From: Minisyncoccota bacterium
Lineage (GTDB): Bacteria; Patescibacteriota; Minisyncoccia; JAHIHE01; JAGLIN01
Assembly (NCBI GenBank): GCA_041661265.1
Contig: JBAZUT010000004.1
Location: forward strand, 63,980 to 127,979
Length of the DNA stretch: 64,000 nt
Direction of reading: 5' to 3'
Part shown: in pieces, positions 3,574 through 47,738 of the stretch
How the letters are laid out: each line of letters begins with the position of its first letter
Numbering within the stretch: position 1 is the first letter of the stretch
Made by a program: the position numbers and the translations under genes
The notes under the pieces: generated by a model
Databases searched by the model: none
What the model saw: the letters and a program-made list of their open reading frames with translations, nothing else
What the model was told of the DNA's origin: nothing

Positions 3574-4686
3574 ATGATGATTCCCTTGTCTCAGCCGGAT
3601 ATCGGCGAGAAGGAGCGAAAGGCCGTGTTGGACGTTTTAAAAACGCCGTGTTTGGCGTTGGGGCCGAAGTTGACAGAGTTTGAAGAAAAATTTTCCCGCT
3701 ATATCGGGACAAAATATGCGGTTGCCGTAAATTCAGGAACCAGCGGATTGCATCTCATCGTACGCGCACTCGGTATCGGGCGCGAGGACGAAGTGATAAC
3801 CTCGCCATTCAGTTTCATAGCTTCGGCAAATTGCATTTTGTTTGAAAATGCGAAACCTGTTTTTGTCGATATTGATCCCGATACTTTGAATATCGATGCC
3901 GGAAAAATTGAAAAAGCGATCACAGACAGAACGAAGGCGATAGTGGCGGTGGATATTTTAGGCCATCCGCTGGATTGGGATCGGGTTACAAAGGTGGCAA
4001 GAAAAAATAAATTAAAGATAATAGAAGACAGTTGTGAAGCTTTTGGCGCCGAATACAGGGGAAGAAAATGCGGAACATTCGGAGAGGCGTCTGTTTTTGC
4101 GTTTTATCCCAATAAACAGATGACGACAGGCGAGGGAGGAATGATCCTGACTGACAGCCGAGAGATAAAAGATCTGTGTTCAAGCATGGCCAATCAGGGA
4201 AGGAAGGTTGAAAACGGGAAATGGCTGGAGCATGTCCGTTTGGGATACAACTATCGCATGTGCGATATCAATGCCGCTTTGGGAATAGCGCAGCTCTCAA
4301 GGATCAATGATATGTTCAAAAAAAGAGACAGGGTCGCAAAGCTTTATGATAAATATCTTGGTGGCGTCGATGGTGTAAGCGTTCCCTATGTCGCTCCGTG
4401 GGCGAAGATCTCATGGTTTGTTTATGTGATCAGGCTTTCTGGTAAATATGTCCGCAAGGACAGGGACAGGATCATGGAAAAATTAAAAGACGCCGGAATA
4501 CAATGCAGTAATTATTTTCAATGCATTCATCTTCAGCCGTTCTATAAAGATCTGTATGGTTATAAACGCGGCGATTTCCCGATCGCGGAAAATATTTCCG
4601 ATCACACGGTTGCTCTGCCTTTTTATAATAACCTGAGCGAAGATAAGATAAAGTACGTGGTCAAATCCCTGAAACGGATCATATAA
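3574..4686 (+). CDS. DegT/DnrJ/EryC1/StrS-family PLP-dependent sugar aminotransferase (PglE/WbpE-like).
   Basis: 370 aa. Motifs LSQPDIGEKERKAV, AVNSGTSGLHL, SFIASAN, EDSCEAFGA and SFYPNKQMTTGEGGM (PLP-lysine region) are characteristic of the family. Confidence 0.88.
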   Translation: MMIPLSQPDIGEKERKAVLDVLKTPCLALGPKLTEFEEKFSRYIGTKYAVAVNSGTSGLHLIVRALGIGREDEVITSPFSFIASANCILFENAKPVFVDIDPDTLNIDAGKIEKAITDRTKAIVAVDILGHPLDWDRVTKVARKNKLKIIEDSCEAFGAEYRGRKCGTFGEASVFAFYPNKQMTTGEGGMILTDSREIKDLCSSMANQGRKVENGKWLEHVRLGYNYRMCDINAALGIAQLSRINDMFKKRDRVAKLYDKYLGGVDGVSVPYVAPWAKISWFVYVIRLSGKYVRKDRDRIMEKLKDAGIQCSNYFQCIHLQPFYKDLYGYKRGDFPIAENISDHTVALPFYNNLSEDKIKYVVKSLKRII

Positions 4687-4722: not shown

Positions 4723-6660
4723 ATGCAGCTGTTGGATCGTTTGGCAAAAAGCGATATATTCAAGAAAACCGCCGGAAAAAGAACAATGTTTTTTTTGATT
4801 TGTGATATAATATTCATAACCTTATCTTTCTATCTGGCATTTATTCTGAGGTTTGACGGGCAGATACCTTCGCAGTATTTTTTTGGAAATATCCAGTCGT
4901 CAATTTTACTTGCGCTCGTTGCCTGCGTTCCGATCTTTTATCTCTCCAAGCTGTACCATTTTTCTTGGTCATATGTCAGTACGCAAGAATTGATCGCACT
5001 TTTGAGAGCGGTATCTCTCGGGTTTTTGGTCATTGGCGCATCGTTGTTTATTTTCAGGGATTATAGCGCGTTTAGCGGATTTCCCCGCTCGGTTCTCGTG
5101 ATCAGCTATTTTTTGGTTTTGTTTTCAACCGGGCTGATCCGTTTTTCGAAAAGAATTTATTTGAATATTGCGAGCGGCAAGGGTGAAGCCAAAAATGGAA
5201 AAAGGACGTTGATCGTGGGGGCCGGAGACGCGGGGGAGCAGATCCTGCGGAGCATTCAAACGGGAAAACAGAGAATGTATCTGCCGATAGGGTTCGTGGA
5301 TGACAACCAGATGAAACAGAAAGTTATAATCCATGGCTTGAAAGTCTTTGGTTTTATCGATAATATAACTGAAATCGCAAAGACTGAGAATATCGAGGAG
5401 ATGATCATTGCGCTTCCATCGGCCGGATCAAAGACCATCAAGAGAGCGGTGGAACTTGGGAGAAAGGCCGGAGTAGGGAATATAAAGATACTTCCGTCGA
5501 TGGCGGAGTTGATCGGTGGAAAAGTTTCGATCGGGAACATCAGGGAAGTTGAAGTGGAGGATCTTTTGGGCCGGGAGCCCGTGTCGGTTGATACTGAAAA
5601 GATCGAAAGATTCATAAAGGATAAAACTGTCCTGATCACAGGCGCGGCAGGTTCGATCGGAAGCGAGCTTTCAAGGCAAGTTGCAAAATTCAGACCCCGG
5701 AAGCTTCTTATTTTGGACCAAGATGAAACGGGCATGTTCTATATAGCGAATGAGCTAAAGGCGAATTTTTCCAATTTACAGATTGTTTCAGTTATTGCGG
5801 ACATCAGAGATCCGAATAAAATAAATGAAGTATTCAAGCAATTCAAGCCGAATATTGTTTTCCATGCGGCCGCCTATAAGCATGTTCCTCTCATGGAAGA
5901 GAATCCCGAAGAAGCGGTGAAGAATAATATTTTTGGCATGAAGACCGTTTCGGAAGCTTCTTTGAAACATGGCGCCGAGAAGTTTGTTCTTATATCGACT
6001 GACAAAGCGATCAATCCCACTTCGGTCATGGGTGCAACCAAGCGGGTTGGAGAAATGATATCGCAAGTTTTGAATCAAAAGGATCACACCAAGTTTGTTT
6101 CGGTGCGATTCGGGAATGTCTTGGGAAGCAGGGGGAGCGTCATTCCCACTTTCAAGGATCAGATAAAGCGGGGTGGACCTGTGAAAGTGACGCATCCGGA
6201 TATGAAAAGATATTTTATGATCACTTCCGAGGCATGTCTTTTGGTCATGCAGGCGGCGGAAATGGGCGGCGGCGGAGAGGTTTTTGTTCTGGATATGGGC
6301 GAGCAGATCAAGATCGTGGATCTTGCAAGGGAAATGATCAAGCTATCCGGCTTTAAGCCCGATGAGGATATGCCGATCGTTTTTACAGGTGTGAGGCCGG
6401 GAGAGAAATTATATGAAGAGATCCTGACTCCAAAAGAGGGTACTGTGGCGACAAAGAACAACAAGATATTCATTGCAAAGCTTGCTGCAACGGATGAACG
6501 AAAACTTAATGATGGGATGGGAAAATTGAAAAACATCATGTATAATTCAAATGGTGCTGAAATTAAGCGAGTTTTGAAGGAATTAGTGCCAAGCTATAGT
6601 GGAGTGTCGAATGTCGAAAGTGGAAAGTCCATAAAGTCAGAAAATAATTCTGGATATTAG
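4723..6660 (+). CDS. Polysaccharide biosynthesis protein CapD / PglF / WbpM-like membrane-anchored UDP-GlcNAc 4,6-dehydratase.
   Basis: 645 aa. Four N-terminal TM segments, Rossmann LITGAAGSIGSEL, YxxxK (AAYKHV) and downstream SDR-extended fold motifs. The 3' end of the CDS lies inside composite repeat copy A. Confidence 0.88.
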   Translation: MQLLDRLAKSDIFKKTAGKRTMFFLICDIIFITLSFYLAFILRFDGQIPSQYFFGNIQSSILLALVACVPIFYLSKLYHFSWSYVSTQELIALLRAVSLGFLVIGASLFIFRDYSAFSGFPRSVLVISYFLVLFSTGLIRFSKRIYLNIASGKGEAKNGKRTLIVGAGDAGEQILRSIQTGKQRMYLPIGFVDDNQMKQKVIIHGLKVFGFIDNITEIAKTENIEEMIIALPSAGSKTIKRAVELGRKAGVGNIKILPSMAELIGGKVSIGNIREVEVEDLLGREPVSVDTEKIERFIKDKTVLITGAAGSIGSELSRQVAKFRPRKLLILDQDETGMFYIANELKANFSNLQIVSVIADIRDPNKINEVFKQFKPNIVFHAAAYKHVPLMEENPEEAVKNNIFGMKTVSEASLKHGAEKFVLISTDKAINPTSVMGATKRVGEMISQVLNQKDHTKFVSVRFGNVLGSRGSVIPTFKDQIKRGGPVKVTHPDMKRYFMITSEACLLVMQAAEMGGGGEVFVLDMGEQIKIVDLAREMIKLSGFKPDEDMPIVFTGVRPGEKLYEEILTPKEGTVATKNNKIFIAKLAATDERKLNDGMGKLKNIMYNSNGAEIKRVLKELVPSYSGVSNVESGKSIKSENNSGY

Positions 6661-6837
6661 ATGCTAATTGCCCTATTGTTATATTGTCCCATTATTGAAT
6701 TGTTCTTTGCTTCAGTGGATCATGCTTTCTCAGAGTACTGACCTCCTTGGGGAGGTACAGAGCTCTCCGAGTTCTTTCGTACGTTGCCTCAGAGGATCCG
6801 ACCTCTTGGGGGAGATACGGACCTCTTAGCAAAGAGG
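6601..6837 (+). repeat. Composite repeat, copy A. A 5' (A)AAGTC/GAAAGT oligomer array is followed by an AT-rich ATTGTT segment and two GC-rich hairpin units of form CAGAG-N-GACCTC-N5-GAGGT-N-CAGAGCTCT.
   Basis: 6601-6766 aligns at about 80% identity with 8140-8286 (copy B); the same architecture recurs at about 11960-12080 and 13596-13750. The second hairpin unit is 6790-6837. The 5' part encodes the last ~20 aa and stop of the CapD-like gene. Confidence 0.7.
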
Positions 6838-6856
6838 GGAATGAATACTATTGCCG

Positions 6857-6884
6857 TTGACAGTATTATATATGGTTGTATAAT
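6857..6884 (+). promoter_or_regulatory. Sigma70-like promoter (TTGACA, 16-nt spacer, TATAAT) upstream of the AAA+ ATPase gene.
   Basis: ttgaca at 6857-6862 and tataat at 6879-6884, about 50 nt upstream of ATG 6936. Confidence 0.5.
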
Positions 6885-6935
6885 TAATATAACAAAAAGA
6901 CGCATAATTGTAATGCAATAATTACACATAGCAAA

Positions 6936-8138
6936 ATGGAGAGTAATTTCAAGAAAAGGCTTATATTAAGCCAAATAGAGAAGCATATTGATCACAAGAA
7001 TGCCATTGTGATCACCGGAATGCGACAAGTCGGCAAAACAACGCTTATGCGGTGTGTTTTTGATAAAATTATCGACAAACCCAAACTTTGGTTCGATTTT
7101 GATAATCCCCTGGATCAAAAAATATTTGAAGATATTGAATATCGGAATATTTATGAAAATCTGAAAAATCAATCGAAAGCAGGGGACGACGAGAGAATTT
7201 TTGTTTTTGTCGATGAAATTCAAAACTTTCCTGAGATCACAAAGGTGATGAAGTTTCTGATAGGTCAGTATGGCGTGAAGTTTTTTGTGACAGGGTCATC
7301 AAACTTTTATCTAAAAAACCTTTTCCCGGAGTCATTAAGCGGGCGAAAATTTCTTTACGAATTGTCCCCCCTGTCATTTCGAGAATATTTATATTTTAAG
7401 GAGAAAATCTCATTTGAGGATGCGGAAAATTGGAATATCGATAAGGCCATTAAATCTTCAAATTTGATCGATTTCAAAAAGCTGGAAGTGGATTACACGG
7501 AATTCATTACGTTTGGAGGGTTTCCTGAAGTTTGCCTCACGAAGGATCTGGCGACAAAGCGAGAAGTTCTAAAAAACATATTTGTGTCTTTTTTCGAAAA
7601 AGATCTGAAAATTATTTCAGACTATAGGGATATCCGTGAACTTCGGGACCTCATTCTTCTTCTTGTCCCGCGGGTCGGTTCAATGCTTGATGTGACGAAA
7701 ATTGCTTCCGAACTGGGCGTAAACAGAGTGAAGATATATGAATACCTCGCTTTTTTGCAAGGCACTTTCTTCATAAAACTTATCCCAAAATATTCAAAGA
7801 GCATCGATCGCACGGTGGCTGGAGGGAGGCGTGTGTATTTTTCTGATACGGGCATTCTTAATTCGATTGGAAGCGTGAATGAAGGGCAGCTTTTTGAGAA
7901 TGCAGTTATCAATCAGCTGGACAGATTCGGAGAAATCCATTTTTATAGGGGAAAAAGCGGGTCGGAAATAGATGCAATATTGGATAAAAAAATTGCTTTT
8001 GAAATTAAAACTAAAGGAACAAAGGAATATTTAAGGGATCTGGAAAAGAGATCCGAAGGAATTGGAATTTCAAACAGTTATTTGGTAAGCAGGGATTATG
8101 CGAATATTCCAAAAACGATCTTTGGGTCGATGCTTTAG
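6936..8138 (+). CDS. AAA+ ATPase of the AAA_14/DUF4143 type (P-loop NTPase with C-terminal DUF4143-like region).
   Basis: Walker A ITGMRQVGKTTL and Walker B VFVDEIQ. 400 aa, the typical length and architecture of the archaeal-ATPase-like DUF4143 family. Unrelated to the flanking glycan genes and bracketed by repeat copies A and B. Confidence 0.8.
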   Translation: MESNFKKRLILSQIEKHIDHKNAIVITGMRQVGKTTLMRCVFDKIIDKPKLWFDFDNPLDQKIFEDIEYRNIYENLKNQSKAGDDERIFVFVDEIQNFPEITKVMKFLIGQYGVKFFVTGSSNFYLKNLFPESLSGRKFLYELSPLSFREYLYFKEKISFEDAENWNIDKAIKSSNLIDFKKLEVDYTEFITFGGFPEVCLTKDLATKREVLKNIFVSFFEKDLKIISDYRDIRELRDLILLLVPRVGSMLDVTKIASELGVNRVKIYEYLAFLQGTFFIKLIPKYSKSIDRTVAGGRRVYFSDTGILNSIGSVNEGQLFENAVINQLDRFGEIHFYRGKSGSEIDAILDKKIAFEIKTKGTKEYLRDLEKRSEGIGISNSYLVSRDYANIPKTIFGSML

Positions 8139-8139
8139 C

Positions 8140-8312
8140 GGAGTGTCGAACGTCGGAAGTAGAAAGTAGAAAGTCTATAAAGTCGGAGAAAGATTCCGAA
8201 TATTAGATACTAATTGTTAGATTGTTCTATTGTTGAATTGTTCACTTTCTCAGAGCACTGACCTCGCGGTCGAGGTGCAGAGCTCTGTGAAAAGGGGTGC
8301 AGACCCCTTGCG
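8140..8312 (+). repeat. Composite repeat, copy B, starting 2 nt after the ATPase stop codon.
   Basis: Direct repeat of 6601-6766 (GTCGAA/AGTAGAAAGT oligomers, ATTGTTGAATTGTTC, CAGAGCACTGACCTCGCGGTCGAGGTGCAGAGCTCT), followed by a second hairpin AAGGGGTGCAGACCCCTT at 8291-8310. Confidence 0.7.
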
Positions 8313-8347
8313 CTAAAGGTTTATATTTACTAAAATAAAACAATCAT

Positions 8348-9274
8348 ATGGAGGAAATCGGGAGAAAAGAGGGTGAGGAGGTTTATTTAATCGATTATGT
8401 AAAAGTGATGGTAAAAAGAAAAAAAGTGATCACGACGGTGGTCTTGAGCGTTGTTGTTTTGGCGACAATCGTCAGTTTGGTCATGAATAGGGTATACAAG
8501 ATCGAATCCGTGATTGAGATCGGTACGGTATCGGTCGGTGCGCCGATAGAGAGCCCGGAACAGGTGTTGCAGGGGATCAAAAGGGATGTCTATGGCGCCA
8601 TGGTCAGGGAAAAGCTTGATATTTCCGAAACGGATTTCCCTAAGATAAAGACAGGGAATACTTCCGGGACGAATTTGATCTCAATGGAAATTAATTCCAA
8701 TAGGGCTGATCAGGCGAAGAGTGTTTTGGATGAGTTGAGCAATCTGATCATAGCCGGTCATCAGGAAAAGACAAAAGACGCAAAAGCACTTCTGGAAAGC
8801 GAGATTGAGTTAAGGAAGAAGGATATTGAAACTGTCGGTAAGGACGTTGAAAGAGTGAAAGCTAAGATCGTTTTTTTGGAGGAAGAAAGAAATAATCTGG
8901 ACGCGAAAGTTGCAGCTTTGCAGAAAGTGCTGGTTTATCGGCAGGATGCAGGAAGTCAGTTCGCCCTTTTTGATACAAAAGAAAAACTGGCATCAAAAAA
9001 ACAGGAAATAGAGAATACTTATATAGAAGTCAATTCCTCGGAGAACAATATAAATGCAATAAATGGGCAGATTAATATACTGGAAAAACAGATCTCTGAT
9101 ATCCGCATGACAAAAGTGGTGAAAGGTCCGGCTGTTTCTGAGAAAATTGTCAGTCCGGATATTGTTTCCAATCTGATTATTGCAGTGATATTCGGGTTAT
9201 TCCTGGGCATATTCCTGGCTTTTGTGATGGAGTGGTGGGAGAAGAACGGCAAAGAAATGAAAAGTGAAAAATGA
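8348..9274 (+). CDS. Wzz-like polysaccharide co-polymerase (chain-length determinant family).
   Basis: 308 aa. N-terminal TM after a charged leader, long coiled-coil central region, C-terminal TM (LIIAVIFGLFLGIFLAFV): PCP-1 topology. Confidence 0.65.
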   Translation: MEEIGRKEGEEVYLIDYVKVMVKRKKVITTVVLSVVVLATIVSLVMNRVYKIESVIEIGTVSVGAPIESPEQVLQGIKRDVYGAMVREKLDISETDFPKIKTGNTSGTNLISMEINSNRADQAKSVLDELSNLIIAGHQEKTKDAKALLESEIELRKKDIETVGKDVERVKAKIVFLEEERNNLDAKVAALQKVLVYRQDAGSQFALFDTKEKLASKKQEIENTYIEVNSSENNINAINGQINILEKQISDIRMTKVVKGPAVSEKIVSPDIVSNLIIAVIFGLFLGIFLAFVMEWWEKNGKEMKSEK

Positions 9275-9297
9275 AAAGTGAAAAATGAAAAGTGAAA
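9256..9297 (+). repeat. Three tandem copies of a 14-bp unit (AATGAAAAGTGAAA) spanning the Wzz stop codon.
   Basis: Perfect tandem copies at 9256-9269, 9270-9283 and 9284-9297. The last codons (EMKSEK) and the stop at 9272-9274 are encoded by the repeat. Confidence 0.85.
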
Positions 9298-9433
9298 AAG
9301 TAAATAGCACAAAGTGAATAGTAAATCGTAAATGGTAAATCGAGTTTATTGGTTGATTGTTGAGAGAAGTTAATAAAAATCAAGCGAAACTGAGCAAGTG
9401 GCATTTCCTAAAACCGAGTTTGGGCCAGATGCG

Positions 9434-9476
9434 CCTAAAGCTTAGTTTTAGGAAAATCCTAAAACTAAGCTTTAGG
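9434..9476. repeat. Perfect 19-bp inverted repeat with a 5-nt loop (CCTAAAGCTTAGTTTTAGG aaaat CCTAAAACTAAGCTTTAGG), copy 1.
   Basis: The identical palindrome (loop ataat) recurs at 48400-48442. It lies 10 nt upstream of the ATG of the O-antigen-ligase-family gene and about 160 nt downstream of wzz. Extra CCTAAAAC half-site at 9410-9417. Confidence 0.85.
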
Positions 9477-9486
9477 AAGCAGGTCT

Positions 9487-11901
9487 ATGAGTAAAAGAAA
9501 GAAAAATAGATATAGACAGGATGATATTGTTAACAATCCCAAAAGGGACTATACGAAATATTATCTCTTTATTATAAAGGCAGGGATCGTCGCTTGTCTT
9601 TTTTTGCCGTTGCTCGTTGTTCATTCCCATATGTTTGCAATGCAGGTAGGAAAGGTTCTAGTGTTCCGGACTATTATTGAAATAATAGCCTTTTTTTATA
9701 TTATTTTGATTATCAAAAAAGAGGAGTATCGTCCGAAATGGGGTTTGTTCGAGCTTTCAATCGCGGCATTTATAATGGTTTATCTATTGACTTCTTTAAC
9801 GGGTGTGAACTTTCTCAGGAGTTTTTGGGGAACAACTGAAAGAATGGGTGGGTTTTTCACAATGCTCCACTTCTGGGCATATTTTATGATCCTGATTAGC
9901 GTGTTTCGAACAAAAAAAGACTGGAAGATACTTTTTTCTGTTTCGATCTTTGTGGCGGTCATTTCGTCAATGTATGCGTTCGGGCAGAGCGCATTTTTTT
10001 GGAGAGATATTCTTCCATGGATAAAATCCGAAAATATCAATATATATACGGAAATAGCCAGATATGTTACGACTGATAATTTTGTCATCATCAATGACTG
10101 GAGAACTTTCGGTATGATCGGGAATGCAGGGCCCTTTGCGGGATATATTATGTTTAATGTCCTTCTGGGGTTGTATGTTATCAGTTCGGCAAGAAGCATT
10201 AAAAATAAATTCAGTGGCATTATCGCACTCTTGTTTCTATTTTCCGCTTTGTCTGGTGCAGGCACGAGAAGTGCATACATCGCAATTCTGGCGGGATTTG
10301 CCGTTTTATCGGTTATAAATGTCATTTTGTCCAAAAAAAAGAAGATGAGGATCGTTTCCGTCTTGTTCATTCTATTATTAATTATTGGAAGCGGAATTGT
10401 TTGGGCTAATAAGAAAGAGGATTGGGTCAAAAATAGTACTATACTTTCGAGGATGGTTAGTATATCTTTTGAAAATAATGAATCCAGGACTATGACGTGG
10501 GAATCATCCTGGAAAGGATTTGCCGATAGGCCCTTATTGGGAGCGGGGCCCGAGAATTATAATGTTGTTTTTAATAAGTATTTCAATCCTCTGCATTTCA
10601 CGGGATATGGTTCGACTTCTTGGTACGACAAGGCTCATAATATATTTCTTGATATTTTGACGACTATGGGAATTGTGGGACTGTTGAGCTATCTTGGCAT
10701 CTTTGCCATAATTTATTGGTTCTTGATCAAAAACAGGAGAAAAGCGCGGGAGAATCTGCCGGCATTTGCGCTGATCGCTTCGCTTCCCGTTGCTTATTTT
10801 GTCCAGAATATGTTCTGGTTCGATGACTTTTCAAGTTATCTGATGCTTTTCATGTTTTTCGCATTCGTGAGCAATTTTTTCAACCATGGACTTGGGTTTG
10901 AATATAGTGCCGAAAAGGGAAAGAAAGTTACGGATTTTATCCGGAGGAAATTATCTCTCAAGGCTTCTGCTGCGGGCGGCGATAGCGGGAATATCATTAT
11001 CGCGGTTGCGGGAATTGTTTTAATTTTTTCCACTTATTCTGCCAATTTCAAAGCTTGGAGATTCCATGATCTGACAACCGTTGCTGTCGGGGCAATCTCG
11101 CTTAATGCAGATGATTCATTTCTGTGGTACAAGGAAGCTATGAAAAATTCGACTTACCTTGGGAGGCAGGAGCTTTATAAGCGTTTTGGAAATTACGCCA
11201 ATGCGAAATATGTGCTTTCTGATCCGGGAGATCGGCGCAAGACGGAAGAATTCCAAGCCAATCTGAAGTTTGCCATATCCGAGATGGAAAATGCGGTAGC
11301 GGAAAACAAAGAAGACGTGCAATTCTATTCGCTTTTGGGTGCGCTCTATAACAAATATTACAGCAATTTCAGGGAGCCGGAATATATAGACAAAGCCGAA
11401 AAGACTTTGCAAAGGGCGGTTGAGCTCAGTCCTGAGCGCGAGACTGTGTATTATGAATATGGCCAGGCTATGGTTTTCAAAAAAGATTACAAGAAAGCAA
11501 TCGAGTTATTTAAGAAGGGGGTTGACCTGAACCCTCCTGTTCCCATCTCGCATTGGTATCTTGGAATGGCTTATCTTAATGCAAAGGAATATGGTTTGGC
11601 GGATTCTGAGATCAGTGAGGCGATCAAGCTGGGGTATGGATATAAAACGATCAAAGATTTGCTCAGTATCACTCCGATCTATATCGAACTCAAGGACTAT
11701 CAAAGACTTGAGAAGATATATCTGGATGTTTTGGAACTTGATCAAAATAATCCTGAAATCTATGTATCTCTGGCGTTGGTCTATAGAGAGCTTGGTGACA
11801 AAACCGGTGCGATCAAGATGGCGGAAAAGGCTATATCTTTGGACGAATCATTCAGGGTTGAAGGGGAGAAATTTATTGATGAATTGGAAGGTGGGAAGTA
11901 G
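9487..11901 (+). CDS. Wzy_C/O-antigen-ligase-family polytopic membrane protein with C-terminal TPR repeats; candidate O-oligosaccharyltransferase (PglL/PilO-type) or O-antigen polymerase/ligase.
   Basis: 804 aa. About 12 TM segments with a large loop carrying the ligase-family signature (GAGTRSAYIAILAG, AHNIFLDILTTMGIVG) and a soluble C-terminal ~300 aa of TPR-like repeats. Confidence 0.75.
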   Translation: MSKRKKNRYRQDDIVNNPKRDYTKYYLFIIKAGIVACLFLPLLVVHSHMFAMQVGKVLVFRTIIEIIAFFYIILIIKKEEYRPKWGLFELSIAAFIMVYLLTSLTGVNFLRSFWGTTERMGGFFTMLHFWAYFMILISVFRTKKDWKILFSVSIFVAVISSMYAFGQSAFFWRDILPWIKSENINIYTEIARYVTTDNFVIINDWRTFGMIGNAGPFAGYIMFNVLLGLYVISSARSIKNKFSGIIALLFLFSALSGAGTRSAYIAILAGFAVLSVINVILSKKKKMRIVSVLFILLLIIGSGIVWANKKEDWVKNSTILSRMVSISFENNESRTMTWESSWKGFADRPLLGAGPENYNVVFNKYFNPLHFTGYGSTSWYDKAHNIFLDILTTMGIVGLLSYLGIFAIIYWFLIKNRRKARENLPAFALIASLPVAYFVQNMFWFDDFSSYLMLFMFFAFVSNFFNHGLGFEYSAEKGKKVTDFIRRKLSLKASAAGGDSGNIIIAVAGIVLIFSTYSANFKAWRFHDLTTVAVGAISLNADDSFLWYKEAMKNSTYLGRQELYKRFGNYANAKYVLSDPGDRRKTEEFQANLKFAISEMENAVAENKEDVQFYSLLGALYNKYYSNFREPEYIDKAEKTLQRAVELSPERETVYYEYGQAMVFKKDYKKAIELFKKGVDLNPPVPISHWYLGMAYLNAKEYGLADSEISEAIKLGYGYKTIKDLLSITPIYIELKDYQRLEKIYLDVLELDQNNPEIYVSLALVYRELGDKTGAIKMAEKAISLDESFRVEGEKFIDELEGGK

Positions 11902-11959
11902 AGAGTGGGTGGCGGTTAGTAGATTGTAAAGGGGGAAATCAATATATCTCCAAGTTCTC

Positions 11960-12080
11960 TAGAGAGGGGAACAAATTGTATATTGTAAATCGTTCCATTG
12001 CTGAGTTGTTATTGGTCAGAGGATCCGACCTCGTTGGCGAGGTGCGGACCTCTTCGTAAGGGAGTGCAGACCTCTTTGCG
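11960..12080 (+). repeat. Composite repeat, copy C (ATTGT-rich segment plus GC hairpin units).
   Basis: AAATTGTATATTGTAAATCGTTCCATTGCTGAGTTGTTATTGG then CAGAGGATCCGACCTCGTTGGCGAGGTGCGGACCTCT (12017-12053) and a degenerate second unit containing GTGCAGACCTCTTTGCG. A weak GAAGTAGAGAGT match extends into the ligase 3' end from about 11895. Confidence 0.6.
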
Positions 12081-12086
12081 ATAATT

Positions 12087-12115
12087 TCCGCCTTTACGGC
12101 GGGTTTATTTTGTGC
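12087..12115 (+). terminator. Candidate intrinsic terminator (CCGCC-tttac-GGCGG followed by a T-rich run).
   Basis: 5-bp GC stem plus gtttatttt, downstream of the ligase-family gene and repeat copy C. Confidence 0.4.
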
Positions 12116-12154
12116 TATAATTAAAATATCTCAGATAAAAGAAAACAAAAATAG

Positions 12155-13132
12155 ATGATCGGAGGCTTCAAAAACACATTTGGTTTTCAAAATTGCAAGG
12201 AATATAACTTGGGACTTTGGCAGTGCCCAACTTTTTTATTTGTCGTAATGGGCATAGTCAACATGTGCGCAATGGTTGGAGTGTATATTCTTGTCAGCAA
12301 CAACTATAATTCTCCGGAAATCATGGTGGGAAGCGTGAGCGGAGTGAGCATGCTGATATTCATACTTGGATCGTCGGTGATTACCGGGGTGGAGCAGATA
12401 GCAAAGGCGAATTATGCCAAGTCGGAATTCGTTTCGATCGCTTCGCACCAGCTCAAGGCGCCTCTTTCCGGCATGAGGTGGGCGACTGACGTGCTCCTCA
12501 GCAAGAAAGTTGGAGAAATAACCGGGAAGCAGGAGGAATATCTGAAGGACATTCAGGAGAATACATCGAGGATGATCAGGCTGGTGAACGATCTTTTGGA
12601 TGTTTCCAGGATAGATTCAGGAAGAATGAATATGAAAACCGAGCAGGTAAGTCTATGTGAGATTATCGAGGGGGTCATAAGAGAACTGGGTTCATTCGCT
12701 CTCGCGAACAATGTCCAGATTATATTCAAGCCGATGTCAAAGGCTTGTCTGATCAATACGAATCCTGTCCGTATCAAGATGGTTATACAGAATTTTATCG
12801 ACAATGCCATAAAGTATACAGGGAACAAGAGGGGTGTTGTCGAGATCATATTGAGAAACGAAGGAAAACAGATCTATTGCGCAGTAAAGGATAATGGAAT
12901 AGGAATTCCGGCCGAGGAAAGAAAGCACATTTTCGACAAATTCTTCCGAGGAAGCGGAATTGCGAAGACACAGACCATCGGGACGGGTCTTGGGCTATAT
13001 ATCGCAAAAGCGGCCATAGAAAGTTCCGGAGGGAAGATTGGATTTGATACGAAAGACGGCAAAGGAACCACATTTTGGTTTACGTATCCGGTGTGCGCGA
13101 AATGCGAGGATATCAAAAATAGTATCAAGTAG
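12155..13132 (+). CDS. Membrane-bound sensor histidine kinase (HisKA plus HATPase_c) with a minimal sensor.
   Basis: H-box SIASHQLKAPLSGMRW, N-box NAIKYT, G-boxes DNGIGIP and GTGLGLYIA; two N-terminal TM segments. The real start may be the internal Met at 12236. Confidence 0.85.
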   Translation: MIGGFKNTFGFQNCKEYNLGLWQCPTFLFVVMGIVNMCAMVGVYILVSNNYNSPEIMVGSVSGVSMLIFILGSSVITGVEQIAKANYAKSEFVSIASHQLKAPLSGMRWATDVLLSKKVGEITGKQEEYLKDIQENTSRMIRLVNDLLDVSRIDSGRMNMKTEQVSLCEIIEGVIRELGSFALANNVQIIFKPMSKACLINTNPVRIKMVIQNFIDNAIKYTGNKRGVVEIILRNEGKQIYCAVKDNGIGIPAEERKHIFDKFFRGSGIAKTQTIGTGLGLYIAKAAIESSGGKIGFDTKDGKGTTFWFTYPVCAKCEDIKNSIK

Positions 13133-13149
13133 CTAGTAGTAAGTATCAT

Positions 13150-13205
13150 GCTTAATACTCTCTACTTAATGCTTAATACTCTCTACTTAATACTTAATAT
13201 TTAAT
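13150..13205 (+). repeat. About 2.6 tandem copies of a 21-bp unit (GCTTAATACTCTCTACTTAAT) between the kinase stop and the regulator start.
   Basis: Two perfect copies at 13150-13170 and 13171-13191 plus a partial ACTTAATATTTAAT. Confidence 0.8.
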
Positions 13206-13209
13206 AAAC

Positions 13210-13590
13210 ATGGCAAAGAATAATAAAAAAATACTTGTAGTTGAAGATGAGGCGACACTTCAGAAAGCGCTCAATGACGTTCTTGTCGGAGAGGGGTTTG
13301 ATGTTGTGAGCGCGCTTGATGGAGAAAAAGGTTTTCAATTGGCAAAGGAGGAAAAGCCCGACATAATATTGCTCGATATAATTCTTCCCAAGATGGATGG
13401 TTTTGAAGTTCTTACCAATCTGAAAGCTACGGAAGAAACAAAAGAAATACCCGTGATAATTCTGACCAATCTCAGCGATCTTGAGAACATCCAGAAAGCT
13501 CTTGATCTTGGGGCGAATACATATCTCGTGAAGGCTGATTTCCATCTTGATGATGTGCTGAAGAAAGTTAAAGCGACGTTGAAGATGTAG
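13210..13590 (+). CDS. Single-domain response regulator (CheY-like receiver, no output domain).
   Basis: 126 aa. Acidic pocket VVEDE, phospho-acceptor in ILLDIILPKMDG, T at IILTNLS, K in TYLVKAD. Confidence 0.88.
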   Translation: MAKNNKKILVVEDEATLQKALNDVLVGEGFDVVSALDGEKGFQLAKEEKPDIILLDIILPKMDGFEVLTNLKATEETKEIPVIILTNLSDLENIQKALDLGANTYLVKADFHLDDVLKKVKATLKM

Positions 13591-13595
13591 GGAGA

Positions 13596-13750
13596 TAGTC
13601 TATCAAGTCAAAAGTCCATAAAGTTAAAAGTCCGTAAAGTCTATAAAGTCAAAAGTCAATCAAGTCGAAATCACTCATTCTTCTTTTTTGAGCAATTCCA
13701 GGCATATCTGTCATTGCGAGCCCTGTACTCGGGGCGCGGCAATCTCTGTG
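13596..13750 (+). repeat. Composite repeat, diverged copy D: AAAGTC/TAAAGT heptamer array followed by a GC-rich hairpin ending CTCTGTG.
   Basis: CAAGTCAAAAGTCCATAAAGTTAAAAGTCCGTAAAGTCTATAAAGTCAAAAGTC... then TGTCATTGCGAGCCCTGTACTCGGGGCGCGGCAATCTCTGTG, comparable to the ...GACCTCGCGGTCGAGGTGCAGAGCTCTGTG end of copy B. Confidence 0.5.
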
Positions 13751-13821
13751 TTTATGATGTAAGAATGATCTGTATTATTTTCTTAGCCGCAGTTTTGCCG
13801 TGTTATTATTAAATGGAATAA

Positions 13822-15615
13822 ATGAAAGTTGACGATCAACAGCTGAAAATATTTCTTATAGACACAAACCTTATTACTAAGGAAGATTTGGAAATTGCTC
13901 TGACCGAATCGAGGGATACGGGGACAAGTCTTGAGGATGTTGTTTTGAAGAAAAATCTGGTAACCGAGGAACAGCTGAACAAGCTCAAGGCTTATATCCT
14001 TGGGATACCTTATGTTGATCTGAAGAAAAGCGAAGTGGATCCGGATATCCTGAAGATCATACCCGAACAGGTCGCAAGGCAATATAATGCTGTTGCATTC
14101 GATAAACAGGGCAACCAACTGAAGGTTGCCATGACCGACCCGAATGATCTGCAATTCTTGGATTTTATAAGCAAAAAAACGAGCTATGAAATAATTCCCT
14201 GTCTGACGGACAGCGAGAGTATCAAAAAAGCGCTGAAACTTTTTCAGAAAAGCCTCAAAGCGGAATTCGGAGCCCTTGTGCAGGAAGTCGGTATCAAAGA
14301 GGGCGCGGAAGGAGAACCGCTGGTCATAAAGGCTGAGGGAGAGGCTGAAGGAGAAGGTATTGACCTGAAGAAGGCGGCGGAAGACCTTCCTGTCGTGAAG
14401 ATCGTAGATACGCTTCTGAAGCATGCGATCTTGCAGGGTGCAAGCGATATTCATATAGAACCTGAGGAGAATGATCTGGTTGTGAGATATAGGATCGACG
14501 GAGTTCTCCACGACGCCATGACGCTTCCCAAGATGGCTTTTGCGGGAATTGCGGCAAGGATAAAAGTCCTTTCGAATTTGAAGATAGACGAACACCGGCT
14601 TCCTCAGGACGGAAGATTTAAAGTTGAAACGAGCGATTACAGGGTGGCGTTCCGTGTTTCCATAATCCCTGTTTTTGACGGAGAGAAAATAGTTATGAGG
14701 CTTCTTGATGAATCGAGCGACAGAGTGCTGACCCTGGAGCAGATGGGTTTCAGAAAAAGAGATTTCGAAGTGGTGAAAAGGGGGGTGGAAAAACCAAATG
14801 GAATGATCCTTGTCGTAGGTCCGACAGGATCCGGAAAAACCACGACTCTGTATACGATCCTTGGAATGTTGAACACGCCGGATGTGAACATCAGCACGCT
14901 TGAGGATCCGATCGAATATAGGATGGCAAGAGTGAATCAATCCCAGATCAACGCCAAGATAAATTTCACTTTCGCGGCAGGCCTCCGGTCGCTACTCCGC
15001 CAGGATCCGGACATTATAATGGTGGGAGAGATCCGAGACAGGGAAACCGCCGAGCTTGCAGTTCATGCGGCCCTTACAGGACATCTCGTCCTTTCAACTC
15101 TCCATACCAGCAGCGCCGCGGGAACGCTTCCCCGGCTCACGGACATGGGAGTTGAATCGTTCATGCTCGCTTCGACCGCGAATATCATAGCATCCCAAAG
15201 GCTTGTGCGAAGAGTATGCCAGGACTGCAAGGGAGAGTTCAATATAGACAATGAGACATATGAAAGCTATTCCAAGTCTTTTGATACGGACCAGATCGCA
15301 GAATTATTAAAAAAGGAAAAGATCGTCAGCGGAAGCTTCAAGAACAACAAGGATCTGTGGCTTAGTATCAAATTTCAGAAGGGCAAGGGGTGCAACAAAT
15401 GCCGAAATGAGGGATATAGGGGAAGGGCCGGAATATATGAAGTTCTGGAAATAACCGAAAAAATAACCAAGCTTATCAATACGAATGCCACAAGCGACGA
15501 CATTGAGAATGAATCCAGAAAAGAAGGAATGACCACAATGATGGAAGACGGGCTGATCAAGGCTGTTATGGGAGTGACGACCATTGAAGAGGTTATGAGG
15601 GTTACGACGGAATAG
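13822..15615 (+). CDS. pilB: Type IV pilus assembly ATPase PilB (GspE family) with an N-terminal GSPII_E_N domain.
   Basis: 597 aa. Walker A GPTGSGKTTT, Asp box, His box, tetra-Cys motif CQDCK...CNKCRNEGYRGR and the N-terminal MshE/GspE-N-like region. Confidence 0.92.
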   Translation: MKVDDQQLKIFLIDTNLITKEDLEIALTESRDTGTSLEDVVLKKNLVTEEQLNKLKAYILGIPYVDLKKSEVDPDILKIIPEQVARQYNAVAFDKQGNQLKVAMTDPNDLQFLDFISKKTSYEIIPCLTDSESIKKALKLFQKSLKAEFGALVQEVGIKEGAEGEPLVIKAEGEAEGEGIDLKKAAEDLPVVKIVDTLLKHAILQGASDIHIEPEENDLVVRYRIDGVLHDAMTLPKMAFAGIAARIKVLSNLKIDEHRLPQDGRFKVETSDYRVAFRVSIIPVFDGEKIVMRLLDESSDRVLTLEQMGFRKRDFEVVKRGVEKPNGMILVVGPTGSGKTTTLYTILGMLNTPDVNISTLEDPIEYRMARVNQSQINAKINFTFAAGLRSLLRQDPDIIMVGEIRDRETAELAVHAALTGHLVLSTLHTSSAAGTLPRLTDMGVESFMLASTANIIASQRLVRRVCQDCKGEFNIDNETYESYSKSFDTDQIAELLKKEKIVSGSFKNNKDLWLSIKFQKGKGCNKCRNEGYRGRAGIYEVLEITEKITKLINTNATSDDIENESRKEGMTTMMEDGLIKAVMGVTTIEEVMRVTTE

Positions 15616-16944: not shown

Positions 16945-17049
16945 TGGAATAGTATAAAGTATTCAGTATTAAGTATAAAGCTAAATACTAAATACCAAAT
17001 TTCCAGATCAAGAGATAAAAAATTTAATTATATTTATCGCAATATTATC

Positions 17050-19032: not shown

Positions 19033-21093
19033 ATGGGTCCGATAAAAATAGAAAACGACAATAGAGGTTATATCGCGCTGATCACGGTCGCTCTCATGAC
19101 GGGACTTATTTTGATCATTGTCATGGCTTTGACGAACATCGTGATCTCCAAAAGAAATATAAGCAAAAATATCGTATTTTCCGCACAATCTTTTTATTCT
19201 GCGGAATCCGGGCTGGAAGACGCTATATATAGGGAAATGACGCCCTATGATTCGCCTTCAGGTACGCTGACCCTGGACGGGGCTTCTATTGATCAGACCA
19301 GAAATTCGAGTGGTGATACGATCACGATCGAGTCTATTTCCGATTTTTCAAACAACACAAGAAAAATGACGGCAAAGCTCAAGGTTGCCGTTACGACAAA
19401 TGTTAAATTTCGCTATGGCGTGCAGGTGGGTGCGGGCGGATTGTTCATGCATCAAGGTTCCACTATCACGGGTAACTTGTATTCTGATGGCTCCGTGGAA
19501 AAGGGAAGCGGAAGCGCAGCCACGATCACCGGAGATGTTTTCGTCGCCACGGGCATAGAGTTGGACGGATCAGCAGGTAATTGGACTGGACAGACAACTG
19601 ACAAGAATTTTGGACTTAAACAACCTCCTAACACAGAAACCACTGATATCGCAATGCGCTATGTTCCCGAATTTCCTCCGGTGGCGATCTCAGGCGGCGG
19701 GGGATCGGGTGCCAAGGCTACTGCAATTGTCAGCGGAGGTGCGATAGCGTCGATTACTATCACCGCAGGCGGTACAGGATACACATCCCCTCCTGTGATA
19801 TCGATCGGCGGCGGATCGGGAGCGGTTTTTTCCGCTCCGACCATAAGCGGAGGTGCTTTGCAAAATGATATTACAGTCAGTGCGGGCGGAAGCGGATATA
19901 GTTCAACCAGCGGAAATTTATCGCAAGTTTCTTTCTATTTGAAAAGGACGAATACCGAACCGACCGACGGAATGATATATGTCACAGAGGATAATGGCAG
20001 CGGTTCTCCCATGACATCAGCGATCTCAGGCGGCAGTACGCAACTTATAGCTGAGAATATCGGTACCAGTTATAGCTGGGTCAGTTACAGCTTTGCCACG
20101 CCGCCGCTCCTGACAGCTGGATCTACTTATTGGATCGTGATAGATGCGCCTTCTTCAAGTTCGGCTACTAAATATTATTCTGTCGGAAGGTCGGCTGCCA
20201 ATTCGGATATTTCCAAATATAGCGCTCCAAATTGGACCAGTCCCTCCTGGACAACTGATACGGGCCAGGGATATGCATATAAAGCGTGGATCGGAGGGAA
20301 TCCGACTCATATTGATGGCATAACTGTGGGCGGAAACGCTAAAGCCAACACGATACTTAATAGTATTATCGCGGGAGACGCTTATTATAAAACGATAGAT
20401 GACGATACTACGGTCCGTGGATCCCAGTGCCTTAATGCATATTGCCATCCTGGCAGCGAGGATCCTCCTTTTGAAGCCTTGCCTGTTTCTGATGGTAATA
20501 TTACCGATTGGAAAGCGGATGCTTTGGCAGGAGGAACTTTTTCCGATGCGGCTCATTGCAATCCATCTGATGGCGCTGTGATTGGTCCGGCGGTTCTGGA
20601 TTGCGACCTTGTAATTTCTACGGGAAATACTGTGACTTTGGGTGGTACGATCTGGGTGAAGGGTAATATCACCTTCGATGGCAATTTGCAGCTGGATGGC
20701 GGATATGGGACGAAGAGCGGGCTTGTAATTGCCGATTCCACAGATCCTGCCAAGGGAATGATAGATGTCAGCGGTTATGTCTGCGGTTCGCAGGGATATA
20801 ATGGTTCAAATTGCGGCACCTCCAATGATACATATATCATGATGCTGTCAACTCATCCGGGAACCGCCGATAATGCAATTTATGGAGGCGCTCATAGCGA
20901 CGCTTCCGTATATTATGCTACCAATGGCAAGGTAACGATCAAAAATCAGGGTGATGTAAAAGAGGTGACCGGCTACATGCTGGAAATATTACAGAATGCC
21001 AACGTTAGCTATCAGACCGGACTCGCTAATGCCGATTTTACTTCCGGTCCCGGTGGAGGGTGGAGCATAAGCGGATGGAACGAAATTGAATAA
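19033..21093 (+). CDS. Large PilX_N-domain pilus-associated protein (candidate tip or minor pilin with C-terminal extension and Gly-rich repeats).
   Basis: N-terminal hydrophobic anchor plus [17 protein letters not shown] (PilX N-terminal-like motif, compare 35359..35778). Internal about 27-aa repeats [23 protein letters not shown] / [23 protein letters not shown]. 686 aa. Confidence 0.7.
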
Positions 21094-24238: not shown

Positions 24239-24417
24239 CATAGAAAGTTAAAAATGCAAAGATCAAATATCAAAAATTTGGAATACGGTACATTTCAAAT
24301 GGGAGAAACCTTGACCTGTTTATTTGCCAAGAGGCGGATTTAGCGAGATGAGGAAAACGCGTGTCCGCCCACTGGCGGAGGATTCTTTCGAAAATGGAAG
24401 CATGATGCTGAAAAAAA

Positions 24418-36356: not shown

Positions 36357-36371
36357 AATACTTATAATTTA

Positions 36372-36410
36372 CAATTCTCAATTTCCAATTTCCAATTTCC
36401 AATTTTCAAT
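36372..36410. repeat. Heptanucleotide tandem repeat (CAATTTC, 5 units, 3 perfect) starting 16 nt upstream of the pseudopilin start codon.
   Basis: caattct caatttc caatttc caatttc caatttt, in the 5' UTR/promoter region of the - strand gene 35775..36356. Confidence 0.85.
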
Positions 36411-36683
36411 GAATATTGATTAATTGAAAATTATTCCAGGAATGTAAAATGAAAAAATCAAAGATAAAAATTATGGTGTTTTTGTCTTCAGGCCAAAAAC
36501 AGATCTGAATCAATAAAGGAACCTCTGAAAAACTCCATTTTGTCATTCCTGTGAAAGCAGGAATCCACTATTTAAGCTAAACTTTATTTTACAAAATGTT
36601 ACATTCTGACTGTTTTTCAGACTTTCCTAAAGTTTGAAATCCGAGTTGTCATTTTCATTTTTTATTTAAAATTTACATTTGTT

Positions 36684-45699: not shown

Positions 45700-45936
45700 T
45701 GAAGTAAATTCAAAAATAAAAAATCAAAATGTAAAATGACAGATCAAAATGATAAAAGTTTGCATTTAATAACTGATGACCGGGAAACAAACGCCAAACA
45801 AGTTTCAATCACCGAATGAACAAAGTACGAGCATCTGATTATTACTCGCCTGCAGGCAGACAGATATTTTGATGTTTGGATATTTTAAGCTTTGCATTTT
45901 CACTTTGATTTTTGATATTTAAATTTTACATTATCA

Positions 45937-47637: not shown

Positions 47638-47639
47638 GG

Positions 47640-47735
47640 GCGAAAGTCAAAAGTTAATAGTCCAAAGTCAAAAGTCGTAAGTTTAAAACCAAAAGTCAAA
47701 AGCTTAAAGTCTAAATCAAAATCAAAATTATAGAA
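47640..47735 (+). repeat. (A)AAAGTC / AAAGTT heptamer-type oligomer array between the membrane-protein gene and pilB-2.
   Basis: gcgAAAGTCaAAAGTTaatAGTCcAAAGTCaAAAGTCgtAAGTTtaaaaccAAAAGTCaAAAGCTtAAAGTCtaaatcaaaatcaaaa; same unit as the 5' part of the composite repeat (copies A, B, D). Confidence 0.75.
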
Positions 47736-47738
47736 TCA

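Follow-up and report, generated by a model that had tools for sequence, protein, structure and literature searches.

In a 64-kb stretch of DNA (the window below; 43% GC) from a metagenome-assembled genome of an uncultured Candidatus Paceibacterota bacterium (Patescibacteria, or candidate phyla radiation, CPR), a surface-glycan locus and two type IV pilus clusters contain spacers of 200-380 bp filled with tandem arrays and hairpins. We read them as mosaic 3′ spacers of Paceibacterota surface genes that resemble repetitive extragenic palindromes (REPs) and bacterial interspersed mosaic elements (BIMEs), and not as one composite transposon; we put the probability of this reading at about one half. 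A first-pass annotation of the window had described a single composite family, resembling miniature inverted-repeat transposable elements (MITEs), in four copies (A-D) of the same architecture at gene 3′ ends. The feature is real and wider than was described there, and it joins two known kinds of sequence, REP/BIME-type hairpin mosaics and heptanucleotide simple repeats. We propose three building blocks: degenerate arrays of 7-8-nt units (AAAGTCN, AAATGAA/AAGTGAA, ATTGYTNN and others), which replication slippage would generate, lengthen and shorten; a small family of 44-nt hairpins confined to the lineage, here called H, whose stem would be under selection; and other hairpin families that would be able to replace H at the same position. 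These modules would occupy the interval between a stop codon and the sigma-70-like promoter of the next gene in the co-oriented surface-glycan locus, where the hairpins would most likely act in the transcript, as 3′-end structures that terminate transcription or shield the mRNA from 3′ exonucleases.

H is a double palindrome of the form AGAGG-YCYGACCTCN-loop-NGAGGT-R-CRGACCTCT, in which two GAGGT-N3-4-ACCTC units fold as one 14-15-bp stem with one purine bulged; it is 57-64% GC within spacers that are far more AT-rich. The pattern CAGAG-N4-5-GACCTC-N5-6-GAGRT matches four sites in the 64 kb, against 0.00 expected (6731, 6790, 8251 and 12017), all on the + strand and all in three adjacent spacers within 5.4 kb, and the folding stability of the hairpins corresponds to z = -2.1 to -3.5. 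The recurrence of a hairpin unit, as first claimed, is thus borne out. We built a covariance model on seven copies of H and with it counted nine copies in total from five sources: the four in the window, two in contig L015, and one each in contigs L008, L009 and L010. L015 is the closest of three relatives when these are ranked by identity of a CapD-like protein (L015, 87%; L016, 83%; L017, 78%). The model found no further copies in the rest of the window or in the adjoining DNA, 10 kb on its left side and 9 kb on its right (~84 kb of genome covered in all), and none in contigs L016-L027, which include DNA flanking the window. The two H sites in L015 lie in Bac_transf-to-E1_dh and transketolase-to-aminotransferase spacers that have no counterpart in the window. 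L009, where H stands beside a tRNA gene, and L010, where it stands between unrelated genes, are other contigs from the metagenome that also holds this organism; L008 is a 34%-GC contig. The wider copy search that the first-pass annotation had called for added copies on other contigs and none to the four within the ~84 kb.

When the nine copies were aligned, 93.7% of cells were paired, compared with 34-51% in slid registers. Compensatory changes affect two pairs: at 13:33, five copies have C-G and four have U-A, and the closing pair 20:25 is G-C, C-G, U-G or U-A. By our reading of the flanking open reading frames (ORFs), eight of the nine copies have the same orientation as the genes beside them. 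A role for H in the transcript is suggested by its position between stop codon and promoter, by this sense-strand bias, by covariation in the stem and by G-U pairs that some copies form on the sense strand.

We found no credible match to the exact H motif in 185,579 species-representative genomes of GTDB; two matches were discounted, one in an apparent coding stretch of a Clostridia metagenome-assembled genome and the other, which we treat as chance or an analogue, in a 64%-GC Rhizobiales contig. The same motif was found at eight loci in JGI metagenomes. L007, L013 and L014, on contigs of 60-74% GC, were set aside, as was L012, the Rhizobiales sequence again; L008, L009 and L010 were kept because the upstream arm, which the search pattern does not require, complements the 3′ arm. 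A phage origin was dropped, since neither the hairpin motif nor an array motif matched viral contigs. Rfam models gave no hit with an E-value below 0.05 within positions 6400-14000, and only tRNA reached a gathering score in the window.

Copies A and B are collinear homologues. Copy A (6593-6853, +) follows the gene for the CapD-like epimerase/dehydratase (4723-6660, +; MFA6096777.1), and copy B (8132-8319, +), which holds one H, follows that for an AAA_14/DUF4143 ATPase (6936-8138, +; MFA6096778.1), an accessory gene bracketed by the two copies. Both copies have the same 5′-to-3′ order. An AAAGTC-type array of period 7-9 (6601-6642 in A; AAAGTC/AAGTAGA at 8139-8185 in B) leads to a small hairpin (CAGAA-AATA-ATTCTG at 6638-6652; CGGAG-AAAGA-TTCCG at 8184-8198), whose stems differ by a compensatory change (CAGAA...TTCTG versus CGGAG...TTCCG). 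Next come the palindrome ATTAG-ATR-CTAAT (ATG at 6656-6668; ATA at 8202-8214) and four or five ATTGYT octamers (6667-6705; ATTGTT x4 at 8213-8243), and after them H, as copies A1 (6728-6771) and A2 (6787-6831) in A and at 8248-8291 in B. A short hairpin closes the order (CCTCTT-AGCA-AAGAGG at 6824-6839; AAGGGGT-GCAG-ACCCCTT at 8292-8309). Positions 6593-6771 and 8132-8291 are identical at 127 of 153 aligned positions (83%), with indels of 7, 8 and 18 nt and an alignment score of 98, compared with -110 +/- 14 for shuffled sequences. The homology begins sharply at GCT[A/T]TAG followed by YGGAGTG, and the flanking genes are not homologous. Segmental duplication together with flanking genes was ruled out, as the similarity stops at the element edges.

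The AAAGTC-type array of copy A lies within the last 20 codons of the CapD-like gene. Thirty homologues of the protein finish with ...VP[ST]Y and 2-10 further amino acids; the window protein adds an array-encoded tail, SGVSNVESGKSIKSENNSGY, whose stop codon (6658-6660) lies within the ATTAG palindrome, and the 87%-identical relative also has an extra tail. The claim that copy A supplies the end of this gene therefore stands, and the composite remodels one C-terminus, that of the CapD-like protein.

The ATPase gene has its own promoter and 5′ leader (6857-6935, +), consisting of TTGACA-16-TATAAT (6857-6884, a 12/12 match) and a TGTAAT..ATTACA hairpin. ATPase homologues in six other contexts, usually glycan clusters, keep the promoter, as TTGACA-17-TGTATAAT, and the leader hairpin, for example at L018 4908-5000, L021 4920-5000 and L022 2270-2361; L015 12146-12265 holds a remnant. 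The idea that the ATPase gene carries element B along with it was rejected, as the downstream sequence in those six contexts is unrelated. A and B are direct repeats on either side of one insert, the ATPase gene. We propose that the whole CapD 3′ module was duplicated as this gene, with its promoter, entered the CapD-Wzz spacer, which would have produced the long A-B similarity. As A and B flank an inserted accessory gene, that similarity reflects local duplication at least in part, an outcome that the first-pass annotation had named as counting against a repeat family; it had also specified flanks homologous beyond the element, and those were not found. Several ATPase loci carry tandem paralogues, and L021 retains a promoter and start codon left from a neighbouring paralogue.

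Copy C (11926-12113 with its surroundings, +) lies in the spacer after a gene for a Wzy_C + TPR protein (9487-11901, +), the 'ligase-family' gene of the first-pass annotation. Here an ATTGT/ATTGCT array (11975-12012) is followed by H (12014-12058), by another hairpin, AAGGGAGT-GCAG-ACCTCTTT (12058-12078), and then by CCGCC-TTTAC-GGCGG with a T-run (12087-12113), a canonical terminator that is kept in relatives. The ATTGT array and H are common to C, A and B, and a GTGCAGACCTCTT tail occurs in C as well; the AAAGTC part is not shared. A conserved tail had been proposed for the family, and GTGCAGACCYCTT is indeed present at both 8297 and 12064. Copy C had also been thought to begin inside the last codons of the upstream gene. 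However, the stop codon (11899-11901) is more than 70 nt 5′ of the array (~11975) and of the hairpin (12014). Further upstream, GTAAAGGGGGAAAT (11926-11939) is complementary at 13 of 14 positions to ATTTCCGCCTTTAC (12084-12097), which overlaps the 5′ half of the terminator, and the minimum-energy fold of the spacer takes this long-range pairing in place of the conserved terminator stem (12087-12103). The pairing and the terminator stem would exclude each other, in the manner of anti-terminator and terminator. Neither L016 nor L017 has the upstream arm. Adjoining the Wzy_C gene stop on its 3′ side is GGCGGTTAG (11911-11919), which is similar to the ops element of polysaccharide operons, GGCGGTAG, apart from one added base; the likeness is probably due to chance.

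Could the composite (~190 nt) or the 44-nt doublet be a non-autonomous transposable element, MITE-like or similar to the PATE/REPIN class, moved into gene 3′ ends by a transposase encoded elsewhere? The sharp boundaries of A and B, without homology in the flanks, would be expected of such an element. In addition, the ends of B pair through an 8-nt perfect complement, CTTTAGCG (8133-8140) with CGCTAAAG (8311-8318), and by our own reading A has a 7/8 match at the corresponding place; the ends co-vary between copies. An 8-nt complementary pair in A encloses the hairpin part only, with both H copies. One of the non-orthologous L015 spacers that carry H is 95% identical to copy C, as compared with 84% nucleotide identity for the CapD gene, H is missing from the orthologous spacers of L016 and L017, and the further copies in L008, L009 and L010 include one from a 34%-GC organism. 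On the other hand, reading of the sequence revealed no target-site duplication beside the boundaries of A, B or C, and the only terminal inverted repeats are the 8-nt complements; the right arm of the 14-nt pair of C belongs to the ancestral terminator, which L016 and L017 have, and not to an insert. No transposase or integrase family was found among the ~40 of the 58 window ORFs taken in by the Pfam scan, or among the precomputed hits that served for the rest of the cluster. H occurs four times in three adjacent spacers and not at all in the other ~78 kb, it has no credible match in the GTDB representatives and none in viral contigs, and parts of the composite are found separately and recombined with other hairpins. 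We therefore consider such an element unlikely. What persists of the mobile unit first proposed is a hairpin-bearing repeat unit at the 3′ ends of co-oriented genes, without the long terminal inverted repeats, target-site duplications and many dispersed copies of a MITE. In the REP/BIME-like reading that we prefer, the unit that spreads between spacers would be the hairpin alone, for instance through gene conversion or with the help of a trans-acting enzyme.

The tandem arrays extend well beyond the four copies. Tandem Repeats Finder returned 55 rows, of which 17 have period 7 and more have periods 14, 21 and 28, and arrays with these four periods cover 7.2% of the non-coding bases of the window but 0.28% of the coding bases. 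Consistent with this, autocorrelation of the intergenic DNA is maximal at lag 7 (0.335, compared with 0.283 +/- 0.006 when shuffled; z = 8.7), with a second peak of 0.314 at lag 14. The AAAGTC oligomers belong to a broader period-7 signal present in the intergenic DNA of the window. Unit sequences vary by spacer (AAAGTCN, AAATGAA/AAGTGAA, GTAAATC, CTTAATA, AGTATNA, AATTTCC and TTTTGAA; TAGAATN in relatives). The arrays are concentrated in the spacers of the glycan locus and of the type IV pilus clusters (13.8-24 kb and 36-49 kb); the remaining spacers of the window have none, and neither does the additional 19 kb examined. Most lie just 3′ of stop codons, some abut start codons, and they often form inverted pairs. 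ATTGYT octamer arrays gave 10 matches, compared with 2.9 expected; nine of these, all + strand, fall in four glycan-locus spacers and directly precede a hairpin. The ATTGYT arrays of L015 and L025 likewise have the sense orientation and directly precede a hairpin.

Arrays also occur without H. 'Copy D' (13597-13670, +), after the gene for a receiver-only response regulator (13210-13590, +), is an AAAGTC-type array only (period 7-9, ~7-9 units), and the hairpin that follows it, GTCATTGCGAG...GGCAATC (13710-13744, +), belongs to an unrelated family, GTCATTSC...GSAATC, with a second copy at 36542-36565. Of the four copies said to share one architecture, then, only A and B do so; C has only the ATTGT array and hairpins, and D only the AAAGTC repeats. 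The longest AAAGTCA array of the window (47643-47727, +; ~12 units) is antisense filler between two minus-strand genes of a pilus cluster and also lacks H, indicating that AAAGTC arrays occur independently of the hairpins. A fifth spacer with the same architecture and another hairpin family, missed by the first-pass annotation, follows the gene for a Wzz-like protein (8348-9274, +). This spacer (9255-9476, +) starts with AAATGAAAAGTGAA/GTAAATCG heptamer arrays (9255-9342) that begin within the last Wzz-like codons, continues with ATTGGTTGATTGTT (9348-9361), and ends with a 43-nt palindrome, CCTAAAGCTTAGTTTTAGG..CCTAAAACTAAGCTTTAGG (9434-9476), of the CCTAAARC..GYTTTAGG family.

The AAATGAAAAGTGAA array (9255-9299) has 3.2 units in the window and one 14-nt unit fewer in ENA contig k141_518607; this is the sole difference between the two over 12.1 kb, and it leaves reading frames and promoter spacing unaltered. 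The window proteins named above by accession are encoded on a 176-kb contig, and assemblies from ENA, JGI and Logan (two) carry the same DNA, identical except for that one unit. An assembly artefact was ruled out, as the DNA is the same in these four independent assemblies.

We also weighed the possibility that the spacers are cis-regulatory or phase-variable modules, in which the arrays would serve as binding platforms or spacers of variable length, the hairpins and closing stems would form alternative structures (anti-terminator or terminator), and the two together would tune read-through between surface-structure genes. The restriction of the arrays to glycan and pilus spacers is in keeping with such a function, as are the difference in array length between assemblies, the constant placement of sense-strand ATTGYT arrays just 5′ of a hairpin and, in the spacer of copy C, the long-range pairing that competes with a conserved terminator. 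By contrast, the variation of unit sequences from spacer to spacer makes a single sequence-specific binder unlikely, the 14-nt change that was observed shifts no reading frame or promoter spacing, and the closing stem of C is not found in relatives. Regulation of this kind is, in our view, very doubtful. As RNA, the arrays alone are unstructured (z = -0.5 to +1.4 relative to shuffles). Pairing of the first array with the second as a general rule was rejected, because the folds are no better than those of shuffled sequences; true inverted pairs of arrays are present in certain other spacers.

Several further features of the arrays were noted. Heptamer arrays in inverted pairs, for example (AATTTCT)n...(AGAAATT)n or AAAGTC...GACTTT, enclose a segment between them and might fold into long AT-rich stems with imperfect pairing; they were seen in the window at 45700-45936, 36357-36683 and 16945-17010, and on other contigs at L016 ~20490-20600, L017 15437-15560 (the Wzy-to-kinase spacer) and L010 ~1060-1150. 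Two spacers between co-oriented genes (13133-13209 and 47638-47738) are array throughout, reaching the start codon that follows, and show no evident Shine-Dalgarno sequence.

Comparison with the relatives indicates that the hairpins can be exchanged within a conserved framework. The orthologous CapD 3′ site of L015 keeps the AAAGTC and ATTGTT arrays at ~90% identity and has the hairpins CCTAAAAC..GTTTTAGG and GATTCCCGA..TCGGGAATGAC where the window has H. Hairpins of the CCTAAAAC..GTTTTAGG type are joined to such arrays in L015, L016 and L025. The order A-rich array, ATTGYT array, hairpin recurs in the spacer at 9255-9476 and in L015, L016 and L025, and a composite of the 9255-9476 type is also present 3′ of CapD in L025, 3′ of Wzz in L016 and 5′ of Wzz in L015. 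Arrays occur without hairpins, and H occurs with and without AAAGTC arrays. Because the same arrays are combined with different hairpins at orthologous sites, we conclude that the modules are mosaics with a conserved architecture and a swappable hairpin, which is incompatible with the single composite element originally proposed.

The genes around the modules differ between relatives as well. In L016 and L017, Wzz comes directly after CapD and is followed by Wzy and the kinase, with no ATPase gene and no H. L015 retains the ATPase promoter, the leader and ~14 codons (86.8% nucleotide identity), after which come a 191-aa gene and AbiEii, a member of a toxin family (12429-14400). Between the window and L015, the Wzz alleles lack nucleotide similarity outside the last 120 nt, where positions 9218-9337 are 96.7% identical to L015 15358-15477 over ~55 coding bases and the heptamer array. 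Since similarity is confined to the gene end and the array, the array sits at a recombination or allele-replacement breakpoint, and the gene gain, gene loss and allele replacement seen here make the CapD-Wzz junction a hot spot. The Wzy-to-kinase spacers of L016 and L017 have the terminator and promoter as in the window, with other arrays and no H. The search for empty sites was accordingly informative in part: H is absent from the orthologous spacers, but at copy C these are too different to yield a clean empty site, and the hairpins of C would be lineage-specific additions.

Such turnover raises the question of whether nothing here is mobile, the whole pattern having arisen by local duplication and gene conversion within one hypervariable glycan locus. 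All four H hairpins of the window lie within 5.4 kb, an inserted gene stands between A and B, and the exchange of the Wzz allele stops at an array. Direct repeats likewise bracket the L015 AbiEii gene (~85 nt and ~88% identical by our own count, formed of a TAGAATN array and GATAAGGCGTAAA..CAAAGCTCAAGCAACAAATTACAAA) and the ATPase homologue of L021 (~60 nt). Purely local events do not, however, account for H in L015 spacers that have no counterpart in the window or in the unrelated contexts of L008, L009 and L010, and the compensatory changes point to selection on the stem and not merely to recent copying. This explanation seems to us improbable. Another possibility, which we regard as speculative and to which we give little weight, is that the three-part order (unstructured A-rich heptamer array, sense-strand AUUGYU octamer array, interchangeable stable hairpin) is a selected, lineage-specific 3′ module that marks cassette boundaries and acts as a junction for the exchange of genes and alleles, and that it may also serve as a length-variable platform for read-through or mRNA stability of glycan and type IV pilus genes in an episymbiont. 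Three events point to the boundary role: the entry of the ATPase gene, the replacement that brought in AbiE, and the swap of Wzz alleles up to the array. If so, the module would represent a contingency or cassette system of a new kind for CPR bacteria.

Of known systems, the closest in structure are the REPs, which have a conserved GTAG head that H lacks. The REP/BIME sequences of enterobacteria and the REPINs of Pseudomonas are extragenic, GC-rich imperfect palindromes 3′ of genes (Bertels and Rainey, 2011; PMC3116915). H resembles them in that doublets or tandem units fold into one longer hairpin, in single-stranded DNA or mRNA, within the 20-40-nt extragenic palindrome format. The spacers as a whole resemble them in forming mosaics with other short motifs and in having lineage-specific families that turn over between relatives; the BIME-type mosaic organization is an analogy only, with no sequence relation to the BIMEs of E. 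coli. Unlike the hundreds of dispersed REP copies, H is present in few, clustered copies, and the high, random extragenic copy number of REPs and REPINs was not seen in the DNA covered. The hairpins also differ in being set in heptamer and octamer arrays and in having a CPR bacterium as host, and no match to the REP-associated tyrosine transposases (RAYT/Y1_Tnp) was found among the window ORFs scanned.

Correia elements of Neisseria, BOX and RUP elements of Streptococcus pneumoniae and enterobacterial repetitive intergenic consensus (ERIC) sequences, to which the repeats had first been compared, are 100-250-nt units at gene 3′ ends that can extend or replace C-terminal codons and fold in transcripts. 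Correia-type elements have defined terminal inverted repeats (26 bp in Correia), TA target-site duplications and tens to hundreds of copies. The window repeats share the intergenic position at gene 3′ ends, the altered C-terminal codons and the hairpins, and are unlike these elements in having a terminal complement of 8 nt, no duplication and few copies. Co-oriented genes each followed by an imperfect palindrome (attC) are characteristic of integron arrays, and the locus is similar in its co-oriented genes with 3′ palindromes and in the accessory gene between two similar sites, but dissimilar in that its genes have their own promoters and include those of a core pathway; the ORFs scanned gave no match to an integrase family, and no search aimed at attC core boxes was made.

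For the arrays, the relevant precedents are long simple sequence repeats (LSSRs) and the short tandemly repeated repetitive (STRR) sequences of cyanobacteria, which are heptanucleotide tandem repeats. Heptamer repeats of TAACTGA, for which slippage has been proposed, occur in Beggiatoaceae, Cyanobacteria and Bacteroidetes (MacGregor, 2015; PMC4679880), and intergenic heptanucleotide elements are present in Geobacter (PMC2700814). Heptanucleotides are the commonest class of long simple repeat in prokaryotes and are attributed to slippage, according to Mrazek (2007) as cited in PMC4679880. The arrays of the window resemble LSSR/STRR sequences in their tandem 7-nt units, their enrichment outside genes, their variation in length by whole units (the 14-nt difference between two assemblies of one strain and the 7- and 8-nt indels between A and B) and in slippage as the proposed origin. 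They are unlike LSSR/STRR sequences in having many degenerate unit sequences in place of one dominant heptamer, in their usual position just 3′ of stop codons and at times against start codons, in their frequent inverted pairs, and in being joined, always in the same order, to an octamer array and a hairpin.

Several considerations weigh against the REP/BIME-like reading. A terminator scan picked out 6746-6771, whose tail is TTCTTTCG, together with the conserved terminator at 12087-12103, which is distinct from H; no U-run follows the H copies at 6787, 8248 and 12014. H appears to lack a proper U-tract, and copy C has its own canonical terminator downstream, indicating that H is not needed for termination there. 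A role at the level of DNA, as a cruciform or a protein site, may apply, as H is nearly palindromic, and in one copy a C-A mismatch would become a G-U pair if the opposite strand were transcribed. The covariation score of H, 0.171 as compared with 0.073 +/- 0.020 for shuffles (0/500 reach it), comes from an alignment fitted to the model in which some copies are linked by recent duplication, and is supportive of a conserved stem, not proof of one. While the anatomy of the spacers, the statistics, the covariation, the distribution among relatives and the variation in array length are observed, the RNA-level role, the spread of the hairpin and the order of the insertion events are what we infer from them. 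The low copy number of H, with ~84 kb covered, may be a sampling effect. Finally, slippage alone does not explain why the arrays recur in one order and keep to glycan and pilus loci, which suggests some selected function.

CPR/Patescibacteria genomes are small and tightly packed, yet the spacers described here hold heptamer arrays and at least three hairpin families; a literature search turned up no paper describing repeat families or such elements in this group. Ultrasmall CPR bacteria use cell-surface structures (glycan, type IV pili) for host attachment. The spacers coincide with gene insertion, gene replacement and allele exchange, and if the modules promote exchange or tune expression, they would help to explain surface diversification. 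If they are only slippage products and REP-like hairpins, they would still be useful as strain markers and as a probable source of breaks in assemblies, for many related contigs have array or hairpin modules at their ends. The features that most invite explanation are the fixed module order, the restriction to glycan and pilus loci and the coincidence with recombination breakpoints.

Downstream of copy C, the locus continues with a histidine kinase gene (12155-13132, +), the response-regulator gene and, from 13822 (+), PilB followed by PilC and pilin genes. A sigma-70-like promoter follows each spacer, with sites at 6857-6884 and 12093-12121. The CCTAAARC palindrome family consists of a near-perfect 43-nt form, CCTAAAGCTTAGTTTTAGG-N-CCTAAAACTAAGCTTTAGG, and a half-size version, CCTAAARC-N2-4-GYTTTAGG. 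Sites of this family are in the window (9434-9476 and 48400-48442), L015 (12033-12051, 13106-13150 and 14354-14372), L016 (13155-13173), L017 (16611-16646), L022 (1-25) and L025 (8407-8425). It is spread over related Patescibacteria, often at contig ends, which suggests a multi-copy, assembly-breaking repeat. The GTCATTSC...GSAATC family has two matches in the window, compared with 0.06 expected, and occurs in both orientations in relatives (L015 ~12085-12135; L024 9172-9201); similar hairpins of the form ATTGC..GCAAT are probably widespread across many phyla. In L016, the orthologous spacers hold other repeats, with hairpins of the TTCGACAAGCTCA / GGTAAACT..CTGAGC type (3740-4250, 4830-4968, 6970-7110 and 9770-10003), indicating that hairpin families turn over between close lineages. 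Two short palindromes 3′ of the ATPase homologue of L022, CGAGGTCGGACCTCG (3640-3660) and CGAGGTTGGACCTCG (3765-3785), resemble a single unit of H. Lastly, two tRNA-Arg genes, one in the window (24240-24280, anticodon TCT) and one in L009 (~2490-2540, anticodon CCT by our reading), are each followed by a similar A-rich array, ...AAAAATGCAAAGATCAAA....

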